Part shown: positions 29,146 to 42,371 of the stretch, piece after piece
Position numbering within the stretch: position 1 is the first letter of the stretch
Layout of the letters: every line of letters begins with the position of its first letter
Origin: Escherichia coli
GTDB taxonomy: Bacteria; Pseudomonadota; Gammaproteobacteria; Enterobacterales; Enterobacteriaceae
Assembly: GCF_003334405.1 (NCBI RefSeq)
Contig: NZ_QOWM01000001.1
Reading direction: 5' to 3' (one strand)
Length of the DNA stretch: 64,000 nt
Translations under genes and position numbers: made by a program
Notes under the pieces: generated by a model
What the model saw: the letters and a program-made list of their open reading frames with translations, nothing else
Told to the model about the DNA's origin: nothing
Databases searched by the model: none

Positions 29146-30066
29146 TTAAATGTACAACGACGATTCTCCCACCGGGCGCGTTTTAAAGCGACGGTGGATC
29201 CAGAGGTACTGCTCCGGTGCGCGCATGATCTCTTTCTCGATAATCTTGTTCATATAGGCAGCGGCTTGATTTTCATCTGTCGGGTAGCCTTCCATCTCTG
29301 GGGTGATGAACAAACGATATCCGCTGTAATCCGCTTTTCTTACCATCGTTACGGTCAACATGGCTGCGCCAGAGAGACGGGAGAGAACATAGGTGCCATT
29401 GGTTGTGGCGACATTTTCCACCGCAAAGAACGGCGCGAAGGAGCTGCCTTTACGACCATAATCCTGATCGGGAGCAAACCATACCGCTTCACCTTTCTTC
29501 AGTGCACCGACAATGCCGCGCAGATTATTTCTGCCGATCATCGCTTTGTTAGAGCGCATGCGCCCACGGGTCTGCACCCATTCCATCAGCTGATTATTAT
29601 GTGGACGATAGGTAGCCATCATTGGTTGGCACAGTCCCATCACGCGGCCGCCCAGTTCCAGCGACATAAAATGGACGCCGACAACCATTACGCCGCGATT
29701 TTGCATTTGTGCGCGTTTAAGGTTATCCAACCCTTCAACATCAAACCATTTACGTACGCGACTGTCGGGCCAGAACCATGCCATGCCGGTTTCTACCAGC
29801 GCCATGCCGAGTGAACGAAAGTTTTCGGCAATCATCTTCTCGCGTTCTTCCGCAGAATGCTGCGGGAAACAAAGTTCCAGGTTTTTACGGGCGATAGATT
29901 CACGACGTTTCAGGAATGGTCGCGCCATTGCGCCAATACGCGTGCCGAGAAAGCAGAGAACAGGATAAGGAAGCTGTACCCAAAGCCAGAGTACACCAAG
30001 CCCAAACCATGTGAGCCAGTAGCGAGGATGTAGAAACTCGCGGGAAAATTTGCATTGTGGAAACAT
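29146..30066 (-). CDS. lpxP: Lipid A palmitoleoyltransferase (cold-induced late acyltransferase)
   Basis: ORF track to 30132; internal start MFPQCKFSREFLHPRYW gives 306 aa; HtrB/MsbB acyltransferase family. Confidence 0.9.
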   Translation of the reverse strand: MFPQCKFSREFLHPRYWLTWFGLGVLWLWVQLPYPVLCFLGTRIGAMARPFLKRRESIARKNLELCFPQHSAEEREKMIAENFRSLGMALVETGMAWFWPDSRVRKWFDVEGLDNLKRAQMQNRGVMVVGVHFMSLELGGRVMGLCQPMMATYRPHNNQLMEWVQTRGRMRSNKAMIGRNNLRGIVGALKKGEAVWFAPDQDYGRKGSSFAPFFAVENVATTNGTYVLSRLSGAAMLTVTMVRKADYSGYRLFITPEMEGYPTDENQAAAYMNKIIEKEIMRAPEQYLWIHRRFKTRPVGESSLYI

Positions 30067-30418
30067 AGTTACCTTCTGTAGATACGAATTGTTGTATCGC
30101 AGAAGATTCCATGTCGACAGCGGTACACTCAATTGGTTGGGCCATCATGTACGACAATGGTTCCTGTAAAGAGTGTAAAGACTAGTCAGGACATAACCAC
30201 GAGGAGCATGAAGGCGGTATCTGTACTTTATCACTCGCTGACTGCTTTCAGCTACTGATTATTAATCGTGCAAAGTAAATATTTTTCCGTACACAACAGT
30301 CTTGCATTTAACATGCTGTTTTCATTGATGCTTAGCAAAAATTGCCAGAGGTTAAGGATTGTCTTACTATTAAAGTGACTGAAGTTACAGGTTTTTTAGC
30401 GCGGCAGGAGGTTGAGCT

Positions 30419-30661
30419 ATGATTAATTTATGGATGTTTCTCGCCCTGTGTATTGTCTGCGTAAGCGGCTACATCGGTCAGGTACTGAACGTGGTATCGG
30501 CGGTCTCTTCTTTCTTCGGCATGGTGATCCTCGCTGCACTCATTTATTACTTCACCATGTGGTTAACTGGCGGTAATGAACTAGTGACGGGGATATTTAT
30601 GTTTCTTGCCCCGGCTTGTGGCTTGATGATTCGCTTTATGGTGGGGTATGGCAGGCGGTAG
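30419..30661 (+). CDS. yfdY: Small inner-membrane protein YfdY (DUF2545)
   Basis: 80 aa with two hydrophobic helices. Confidence 0.75.
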   Translation: MINLWMFLALCIVCVSGYIGQVLNVVSAVSSFFGMVILAALIYYFTMWLTGGNELVTGIFMFLAPACGLMIRFMVGYGRR

Positions 30662-30737
30662 TGGGTCAGGATGGCTCATTTGGGCAGGTGTTCACATCAG
30701 CATCAGACATGATTGTTCACCTGCCATGTGAAAGACG

Positions 30738-31013
30738 CTATCGCACAGGATGAATAAGATAATTCGCCTTTGTCGGAAAAGGGGGCGGCATTTCTTCTGT
30801 GAGGTTTAATGGTGGCGCATCTTCTCTCATCTTAAACAAAATCGCCTGTGATGGCTGAAGTTTTGTAGAGTGTGTGGTCGTCATCGCTGATGTTTTTTCA
30901 GTCTCTTTATAGCTCCTCTCACTTCCACCACCCGAAATGGAAAATGCAAAAACATTGCATGCCATAATAGAGACCAATAAAAATAAGCTGAAAAGTATTA
31001 AGTTTACTTTCAT
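30738..31013 (-). CDS. ypdI: Small lipoprotein/exported protein YpdI
   Basis: 91 aa; signal peptide with lipobox-like IMAC. Confidence 0.72.
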   Translation of the reverse strand: MKVNLILFSLFLLVSIMACNVFAFSISGGGSERSYKETEKTSAMTTTHSTKLQPSQAILFKMREDAPPLNLTEEMPPPFPTKANYLIHPVR

Positions 31014-31155
31014 AGAAAGTTATCCTGAAAATGGTTCACTGAGAACCTACGATGTTATGGCTGTATTTACATTTAATTAATCAGTATTTACATCGATATA
31101 ATAAATGACATCTCTTTGTGGTATATAAGAATAGTTCTCTGCGACAGGAAGCATA

Positions 31156-31173
31156 TTCCTACAATTGTAAGAC
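31156..31173. promoter_or_regulatory. EvgA-box-like inverted repeat upstream of yfdX
   Basis: TTCCTACA-AT-TGTAAGAC matches the EvgA consensus TTCPyTACA-N2-TGTAPuGAA. Confidence 0.5.
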
Positions 31174-31308
31174 TAAAATACTTCTTGCGATAATAACTAC
31201 AACTGTAAGATAACCCTTTCAAAATGACCGTTGCTCTCTGATTTCTCATTTCATGCTCACCCAATATGATGGCGGCGTTTTCTAAAACTGTTAAAGAATG
31301 AGGTAAGT

Positions 31309-31944
31309 ATGAAACGTTTAATTATGGCCACGATGGTCACAGCAATTCTGGCATCTTCAACTGTATGGGCTGCTGATAATGCTCCGGTAGCGGCACAACA
31401 GCAAACTCAGCAAGTTCAGCAAACCCAGAAAACGGCAGCGGCAGCAGAGCGTATCTCTGAACAAGGTTTATATGCGATGCGTGACGTGCAGGTAGCGCGC
31501 CTGGCTCTGTTTCATGGCGATCCAGAAAAGGCAAAAGAACTGACCAATGAAGCTTCCGCTTTGCTGTCAGATGACAGTACCGAATGGGCAAAGTTCGCTA
31601 AGCCAGGTAAAAAGACCAATCTCAATGATGACCAATATATTGTCATTAATGCATCTGTCGGAATTTCTGAGAGTTATGTAGCAACTCCCGAAAAAGAAGC
31701 CGCGATAAAAATTGCCAATGAAAAAATGGCGAAAGGGGATAAAAAGGGCGCAATGGAAGAGCTTCGCCTGGCCGGTGTTGGCGTAATGGAAAACCAATAT
31801 CTGATGCCACTTAAACAGACTCGTAATGCACTTGCTGATGCGCAGAAACTGCTTGATAAAAAGCAATACTACGAGGCAAACCTGGCGCTTAAAGGTGCGG
31901 AAGATGGAATCATCGTCGATAGCGAAGCACTGTTTGTGAACTAA
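31309..31944 (+). CDS. yfdX: Periplasmic protein YfdX (EvgA-regulated)
   Basis: 211 aa with signal peptide [21 protein letters not shown]. Confidence 0.85.
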
Positions 31945-32187
31945 TGCTGACAGGCAGTATATTGAGGTAAAGGATTTAACTCCCTCCAGCCGACAATTTT
32001 TTATGACCACAATACGACAGGTTGTGGTCATAAAATTATTTGGCGCTCGCGGTGCTATAAACTCGCATTTTATATTCCTCAAAGTAAACCGCAATAATCC
32101 CGTGTCATCACAAATCATTTATTATGTTATGTTTTATGGTACGCTTTAAAAAGCGTAATCATACCCTTGCTTGTAAATCACCGGCGC

Positions 32188-32205
32188 TTCTTACAGTTGT
32201 AAGAA
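32188..32205. promoter_or_regulatory. EvgA-box-like palindrome upstream of frc
   Basis: TTCTTACA-GT-TGTAAGAA, a near-perfect match to the EvgA box, about 250 bp upstream of frc. Confidence 0.55.
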
Positions 32206-32456
32206 TAACATCACAAATGTCGCGACTCTCTCTGATTACCACGAATCAATATTTATCATATTCTTCTTTTCGTCCTCACTACTTACCATGCAGAAAGGAA
32301 TTGGAAGTGGCGATGAAATGATTTTCAGCACTTGATACAGGATTTTAAAAATATCGAGTGCAGCTACGACGATATTTTGCGGGTTATTTATAGAAGATAT
32401 TACGCCTTAAATAAACGCTAAATTAACACATATTTAATTAACTAATAGGTATTGCT

Positions 32457-42180: not shown

Positions 42181-42198
42181 ATCCTACAGGCGTAAGAA
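42181..42198. promoter_or_regulatory. EvgA-box-like site in the evgA-emrK divergent region
   Basis: ATCCTACA-GG-CGTAAGAA, two mismatches to the consensus. Confidence 0.45.
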
Positions 42199-42371
42199 TT
42201 GTATTGCAAAAGCCACGGTTTAGTCCTCTGTTGTTTTTTTTGCACCTCATTTAAATTAGGCCTCCAACGTTCCTGGGATAATGTGCAACACATGCACTGT
42301 GTTTGATATGAAGAATGAATGCTCTTTTCATTCAATTCATAAATTTCATCTATGAGAAATGAGAGATAATA

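Follow-up and report, generated by a model that had tools for sequence, protein, structure and literature searches.

Organization of the lpxP-frc interval

The 64-kb stretch of DNA analyzed here (the window) is Escherichia coli chromosome, with a K-12 match at every polymorphic column checked. Our subject is the interval between lpxP and frc, where inverted repeats for the regulator EvgA (EvgA boxes) precede yfdX and frc and probably mark two separate EvgA-dependent transcription units, the second with a long untranslated leader. Gene calls come from open reading frames (ORFs) and from the RefSeq annotation of E. coli records that are identical to this DNA or nearly so, and window positions are converted to K-12 coordinates as 2525711 minus the window position. 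According to the RefSeq and K-12 annotation, the gene order is alaC, ypdK, lpxP (minus strand), yfdY (plus), ypdI (minus), yfdX (plus), frc, oxc, yfdV and yfdE (plus), evgS and evgA (minus), and emrK and emrY (plus). Many complete E. coli chromosomes match a 2.6-kb query at 100% identity, and the query was found in 5,424 of 5,426 genomes. The coding sequences discussed here are:

30419..30661, plus strand: yfdY coding sequence, 80 aa, DUF2545/YfdY family, hydrophobic and membrane-type (ORF and annotation)
30738..31013, minus strand: ypdI coding sequence, 91-aa lipoprotein (ORF and annotation)
31309..31944, plus strand: yfdX coding sequence, 211 aa, periplasmic YfdX family, PF10938
32457..33707, plus strand: frc (yfdW) coding sequence, formyl-CoA transferase, first gene of frc-oxc-yfdV-yfdE

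These assignments match the first-pass annotation of this DNA, which had named yfdY, ypdI and yfdX between lpxP and frc and described their products as small exported or membrane proteins: YfdX has a signal-like N-terminal sequence and is periplasmic in listings, YpdI is a lipoprotein, and YfdY is membrane-type. The sharp drop in guanine-plus-cytosine (GC) content that it also described holds for the spacers, at 0.31-0.40 (30050-30350, 30800-31250 and 31850-32450), but not for the three small genes, which are only mildly low at 0.44-0.49 compared with 0.52 in lpxP. The fall in GC between lpxP and frc is mainly intergenic. The yfdX-frc interval is without any annotated feature in K-12.

EvgA boxes upstream of yfdX and frc

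The 18-bp EvgA box consensus is TTCYTACA-N2-TGTARGAA. A search of the window with TTCYTACANNTGTARGAA, allowing up to three mismatches, recovered four matches where 0.59 were expected, and none of 100 shuffles reached four:

31156-31173, no strand assigned: EvgA box 1, TTCCTACAATTGTAAGAC, one mismatch to the consensus
31194-31211, no strand assigned: EvgA box 2, TAACTACAACTGTAAGAT, three mismatches, in register with the yfdX core promoter
32188-32205, no strand assigned: frc EvgA box, TTCTTACAGTTGTAAGAA, no mismatches (perfect consensus)
42181-42198, no strand assigned: evgA/emrK intergenic EvgA box, with the same downstream register toward emrK

The frc box alone within the window is a perfect consensus match. 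Boxes 1 and 2 of the yfdX region are 38 bp apart, centre to centre, with box 2 downstream. The first-pass annotation had picked out palindromes near 31156 and 32188 as EvgA boxes and had placed the second about 250 bp upstream of frc. Both palindromes are real (31156-31173 and 32188-32205), the sites are already published, the matches are far above chance, and the distance from the end of the frc box to the frc ATG is 251 nt. Two elements were missing from that description, namely the second yfdX-proximal box (31194-31211) and the yfdX terminator dividing two units.

Conservation of the boxes was assessed within and beyond E. coli. Polymorphism was counted as variable columns among seven E. 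coli alleles, including strains at 94-99% identity, and related loci (given L numbers below) were gathered from YfdX homologues and a look-up of their contigs. None of the 18 positions of the frc box was polymorphic; box 1 varied solely at the central unspecified base 31165, and box 2 at the central bases 31202-31203 alone. Yersinia alsatica (L083/L084), L085/L086 and L087 retain the frc box, which in L083, L085 and L087 is separated from the frc start codon by 259, 259 and 256 nt, respectively. At yfdX, it is box 2 and not box 1 that is kept in orthologous loci, an in-register box being present in seven other lineages.

Binding of EvgA to inverted repeats that induce yfdX and yfdWUVE has been described (PMC3720670, after Masuda and Church, 2003), and the yfdX and frc sites are listed members of the EvgA-activated set (PMC3720670). 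In an evgS-constitutive mutant, log2 induction was highest for frc (8.37), with values of 6.97 for yfdX and 2.75 for ypdI, and that study found EvgA sites solely at genes already known as EvgA-regulated. Low pH induces frc, yfdX, oxc and yfdV, as seen by RNA sequencing and ribosome profiling (Ribo-seq). The EvgA sites of yfdX and frc are already-known biology, and finding them here is a rediscovery of the textbook E. coli acid-resistance network that leaves its understanding unchanged. What is new is a modest refinement, small and testable, and consists of the third box (31194-31211), a promoter register shared among EvgA targets, and the start sites predicted from it.

A shared EvgA promoter register

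Sixteen promoters were anchored on the EvgA box, comprising those of E. coli frc, yfdX, emrK, ydeP, safA and yegR, three frc orthologues and seven yfdX orthologues. All 16 could be aligned without gaps as box, N24, nTCYKAT (nTCTGA or nTCYTA), a -35-like hexamer, N16-17 and TAnnnT, with TAnnnT, the -10 element, at +54..+59 after the box. Five columns (C+9, A+10, T+26, C+27 and T+31) were invariant in 16/16; A+30 was present in 15/16, and the -10 positions T+54, A+55 and T+59 in 14-15/16. Register-shifted controls produced no invariant column in 2,000 trials. The register was looked for and was absent downstream of box 1 in the plus orientation and of the 32188 and 42181 boxes in the minus orientation. 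The E. coli K-12 ydeP, safA-ydeO, yegR and emrKY promoters resemble those of frc and yfdX in both the inverted repeat and the downstream register, and have the regulator and acid or evgS-constitutive induction in common with them.

Projected onto the window, the register outlines two plus-strand promoters:

31236..31270, plus strand: predicted yfdX core promoter, CTCTGA 31236-31241, -35-like TTTCTC 31242-31247, -10 TATGAT 31265-31270
32214..32264, plus strand: predicted frc promoter, invariant CA 32214-32215, CTCTGA 32230-32235, weak -35-like TTACCA 32236-32241, -10 TATTCT 32259-32264

For yfdX, the predicted start is at about 31277, leaving a 5' untranslated region (5'UTR) of about 32 nt. For frc, we infer a start near 32271 from the shared register, about 66 nt after the box, which would center the box at about -74.5 and give a 5'UTR of about 186 nt. 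The length of this predicted 5'UTR, compared with about 32 nt at yfdX, is one difference from other EvgA promoters; another is the pair of boxes at yfdX, which are 38 bp apart and apparently face opposite genes. The promoter elements of frc are 80-100% identical between E. coli and three other lineages, and within E. coli the segment 32206-32270 has 7.7 variable sites per 100 nt.

The conserved CA and TC positions look like extra half-sites, all in the same orientation. After the box, a half-site matrix derived from the primary palindromes peaked in the forward orientation at +3 (z 3.4) and at +25 (z 3.7). Measured from where the left half-site begins, these positions are at 20 and 42 nt, or about two and four helical turns, and the elements reach -41..-36. 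No reverse-orientation partners of the +3 and +25 elements were found with the same matrix. The CA (+9/+10) and TC (+26/+27) sites are found at 32214-32235, 31220-31241 and 42207-42228 of the window, and at ydeP, safA and yegR in L094 and L095.

Some further features of these promoters were noted. Just downstream of the predicted -10, around the predicted start, ydeP (L094) and yegR (L095) carry near-identical sequence, TTTAAACACTA(T)GAGAG, and the N24 segments of ydeP and safA look paralogous. Right after the predicted yfdX -10 there is a GC-rich tract (GGCGGCG, GGTGGCG or GGCTGCG) in the window (31271-31277) and in L083, L085, L087, L088, L091 and L093; L092 (GACTTCGG) is an exception, and frc promoters are also without the tract. 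The tract is discriminator-like and could hint at stringent or DksA sensitivity.

Probable separate transcription units for yfdX and frc

Between yfdX and frc lies a strong intrinsic terminator:

31999..32044, plus strand: intrinsic terminator of yfdX, with a 15-bp stem and a T-run after it

Its fold has a free energy of -21 kcal/mol (z = -5.4). In strain E22, 32006 A>G is accompanied by 32028 T>C, a compensatory pair of changes that turns an A-U into a G-C pair, and the hairpin is kept in the Yersinia-type loci, Yersinia alsatica among them. Such a strong terminator after yfdX implies that frc has its own promoter, and supports yfdX and frc-oxc-yfdV-yfdE as separate, putatively EvgA-driven units with some read-through possible.

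We therefore favor, with good confidence, an account in which the boxes belong to EvgA-dependent sigma-70 promoters, already published, that serve two acid-inducible units next to evgAS, yfdX and frc-oxc-yfdV-yfdE, with frc starting near 32271 with an untranslated AT-rich leader of about 186 nt and yfdX forming a separate unit. Phosphorylated EvgA would bind the 18-bp inverted repeat centered about 74.5 bp upstream of the start and activate an otherwise poor frc promoter (weak -35 TTACCA, -10 TATTCT). Transcription would then begin near 32271 and produce the untranslated leader of about 186 nt, which would probably be part of an H-NS-bound silenced state that EvgA overcomes. At yfdX, box 2 (31194) would drive transcription from about 31277, and the terminator at 31999-32044 would end that unit.

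Several observations weigh against this account. The -35 hexamer of frc is itself polymorphic (32241 A>G), and no experimental start site of frc, yfdX or ypdI appears in the supplementary tables of Cappable-seq, Adams 2021, SMRT-Cappable-seq and Kim 2012. The register test is weak (P = 0.069) when confined to the E. coli promoters that are clearly independent, four in number; the register signal therefore rests partly on orthologues with shared ancestry, the flanks of which have diverged, and the independent lineages are few. The remaining two observations, a single operon name in the literature and a promoter listed upstream of the frc box, each suggest an alternative.

The literature often names a single yfdXWUVE operon, and some read-through from yfdX is likely. 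Taken further, frc may have no promoter of its own and be transcribed by read-through from the yfdX promoter, the 32188 box then being distal or auxiliary. Co-transcription does seem to occur in some lineages, as suggested by L092, where the yfdX-frc spacer is only 115 bp and without a box. For E. coli, we regard this arrangement as unlikely, given the strong terminator with its compensatory substitution between the two genes and the full promoter register that follows the frc box and is conserved in four lineages. In addition, yfdX and yfdWUVE are told apart in PMC3720670, and induction of frc is stronger than that of yfdX.

The second alternative places the main frc start upstream of the box, with a leader of about 350 nt and EvgA bound downstream of the start:

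32069..32098, plus strand: TTTATA-18-AATAAT, hexamer pair attributed to frc by genomic SELEX

Genomic SELEX (systematic evolution of ligands by exponential enrichment) with the RpoD holoenzyme lists this hexamer pair as the frc 'constitutive promoter' and flags the yfdX-frc spacer as H-NS-bound (PMC3946193), and our scan finds the pair at 32069-32098, upstream of the frc box. However, the pair falls within 32041-32187, the most variable segment (15 variable sites per 100 nt), which directly precedes the box, and it lacks conservation in Yersinia-type loci and L087. The resolution of SELEX is coarse, the hexamers having been assigned by sequence alone, and an activator site downstream of the start fails to explain the very strong EvgA-dependent induction. 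A main start at this position is in our judgment quite unlikely.

The frc leader

The transcript predicted from the frc promoter begins with a long leader:

32271..32456, plus strand: predicted frc 5'UTR, about 186 nt, GC 0.34; length and AT-richness kept, sequence not

Its predicted length is 186-194 nt across four lineages. GC content is 0.32-0.38 in the four, 11-12 points under the flanking genes, and in L087 the leader is AT-rich although the spacer upstream of the box has a GC content of 0.55. The sequence itself has diverged: when E. coli is set against the three other lineages, identity in the middle of the leader is 37-50%, compared with 52-63% at third-codon positions of frc. Among the E. 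coli alleles, variable sites per 100 nt number 11.8 in the mid-leader (32291-32400), 3.6 in the ribosome-binding-site-proximal part (32401-32456) and 2.6 in the frc coding sequence. The first 20 nt (32271-32290, CGTCCTCACTACTTACC) are C-rich and G-poor, contain no polymorphic position (0/20) and are conserved in Yersinia-type loci; this segment of the predicted transcript could possibly matter as initial transcribed sequence, help to load Rho or form a stabilizing stem at the 5' end.

The long leader proposed in the first-pass annotation is supported by the register, which predicts the 5'UTR of about 186 nt. Its companion proposal of an unannotated small transcript or small ORF in this gap was not supported, and the check that it suggested, for conserved structure or a small ORF, revealed no conserved structure and no ORF common to the lineages. 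A small protein gene or small RNA expressed from the EvgA-dependent promoter could account for the conserved length of the gap (251-259 nt) and for the polymorphism-free 20 nt after the predicted start, and E. coli does have a 15-codon ATG ORF at 32288-32335. That ORF is without a Shine-Dalgarno sequence, and its ATG and frame are missing in the three other lineages. No small ORF in the leader is shared among the four lineages, those present differing in position, frame and sequence, and the part of the acid-stress Ribo-seq small-ORF tables that was covered has no entry at K-12 2493255-2493766. As for an RNA, there is no terminator-like site in 32206-32456 before frc, and an Rfam search of the leader gave no match. 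The leader fold is unremarkable (z = -1.06), the RNAalifold consensus of the four lineages reaches -6.1 kcal/mol with a negligible covariation term (-0.62), and one small stem near the 5' end carries a possible compensatory change among these four sequences. The mid-leader diverges no more slowly than synonymous sites do. We regard a hidden gene or RNA as very unlikely. The 3'-end and Rho tables of Adams 2021 contain no frc-leader entry, and the promoter may be silent in those conditions.

The leader is most likely an AT-rich spacer that holds no gene or structured RNA, and is plausibly part of an H-NS-silenced state, as its base composition suggests. In this respect the locus resembles H-NS-silenced, horizontally acquired loci that are counter-silenced by a response regulator, with which it has in common AT-rich intergenic DNA, an H-NS-bound flag, a patchy distribution and, in Yersinia alsatica, integrase and IS1 neighbors.

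Two other candidates in this region were set aside. A 65-aa ORF spanning the box (32124-32321) was considered spurious, since its start precedes the promoter and it runs through the segment richest in polymorphism. A conserved CsrA site was rejected, as the three GGA motifs in the E. coli leader are matched by none or one, placed elsewhere, in the other lineages. Elsewhere in the same regulon, evgL, a 9-codon ORF, is annotated in K-12 over the evgA start (L002 3730-3759; K-12 2483729-2483758), which shows that small leader ORFs do occur in the EvgA regulon.

Box 1 and ypdI

On the minus strand, the sequence after box 1 has the register of ydeP and safA, apart from a missing CA at +9/+10:

31131..31098, minus strand: predicted ypdI promoter from box 1, TTCTTA 31131-31126 (+25..+30), -10 TATTAT 31103-31098 (+53..+58)

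The shared register predicts a ypdI start at about 31091, and neither TTCTTA nor TATTAT contains a polymorphic position. Boxes 1 and 2 may form back-to-back promoters, with box 1 serving ypdI and box 2 serving yfdX, and ypdI may be a direct EvgA target. In published data, ypdI was up on glutathione exposure together with yfdX, yegR, ydeO and emrK.

A possible extended architecture

BvgA is a homologue of EvgA. At the Bordetella fha promoter, BvgA reportedly occupies a far-upstream, high-affinity primary inverted repeat, and lower-affinity secondary sites are said to be filled cooperatively down to the -35, as described by Boucher, Stibitz and colleagues. The EvgA promoters may be similar in that the primary palindrome lies far upstream (predicted -74.5) with weaker half-site-like elements at about two and four turns. 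Unlike the fha promoter, the secondary elements appear as single half-site-like motifs in the same orientation, with no clear second or third inverted repeats. The parallel is one of mechanism by analogy, with a predicted start site, and carries no claim of membership.

By this analogy, we tentatively, and with more doubt than confidence, propose an extended and rigid EvgA promoter architecture. The 18-bp palindrome would be joined by two elements that resemble half-sites, xxxxxxCA with its end 10 nt past the box and nTCYKAT with its first base 25 nt past it. These would abut the -35 and may allow BvgA-like cooperative loading of extra EvgA protomers as far as RNA polymerase. In the same proposal, boxes 1 and 2 would act back-to-back for ypdI and yfdX, ypdI, a colanic-acid lipoprotein gene, would be a direct target, and the frc leader would be an H-NS silencing platform conserved in length only, neither coding nor structured. 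No description of extended half-sites in EvgA promoters was found in the literature searched.

The practical value of these results lies in single-nucleotide start predictions for frc and yfdX and in the conclusion that no gene is hidden in the long frc leader. Direct EvgA targets can also be searched for with a sharper model than the 18-bp box alone, namely the fixed register with its invariant CA and TC. This model points to ypdI as a possible EvgA target and suggests a testable parallel with BvgA-type cooperative activation.

Distribution of the locus among relatives

The genes yfdX-frc-oxc are carried together by Yersinia alsatica (L083/L084), L085/L086, L087 and L092, and the loci that reach far enough (L083-L085) have yfdV, yfdE and evgS too. 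The 115-bp yfdX-frc spacer of L092 (2211-2325) contains a GC-rich hairpin, and frc is presumably co-transcribed with yfdX there; from this short spacer without a box it follows that the dedicated frc promoter and long leader are a lineage-specific state. In a scan of species-representative genomes for Frc, the nearest non-E. coli sequence among the matches listed was from Moellerella (87%), followed among those matches by Burkholderiales and Actinobacteria at 78% or less, and no EvgA boxes were found outside E. coli among the matches listed. The Moellerella frc (L004; 87% amino-acid identity) sits in an unrelated context with another upstream gene and without a box, and its upstream region has AT-richness alone in common with the E. 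coli leader. The yfdX-frc-oxc-yfdV-yfdE-evgS cluster is patchily distributed and looks laterally transferred.

In Yersinia alsatica, the block (L083 666-5813; L084) has a phage-type integrase beside it, along with remnants of IS1 or other transposases, and its frc has about 86% nucleotide identity to that of E. coli. In Buttiauxella, Dryocola-like and other contigs, the order is hdeA-hdeD (minus), yfdX (plus), evgS-evgA (minus). In L087, L088, L089, L091, L092 and L093, yfdX is divergent to hdeD-hdeA and adjoins evgS-evgA, and some of these loci also have glutamate decarboxylase-type and antiporter-type genes. The hdeD-hdeA/yfdX/evgS-evgA arrangement forms a compact acid-resistance island in other enterics, and E. 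coli has ypdI and yfdY in place of hdeD-hdeA.

YfdX ranges from 192 to 222 aa in length; an explanation by the Q-rich repeat was dropped, as the in-frame indels seen in the alignment are rare singletons located outside it. At about 31409 of the window (K-12 2494302, minus strand), Adams et al. (2021, supplementary file 2) list a signal labeled 'internal' to yfdX. The AT-rich spacers of the locus are targets of insertion sequences: NCTC9040 has IS1A between ypdI and yfdX (L101 1577-2274), in a strain where frc is frameshifted too, and CFS3292 has ISKpn26, of the IS5 family, between lpxP and yfdY (L102 704-1684).

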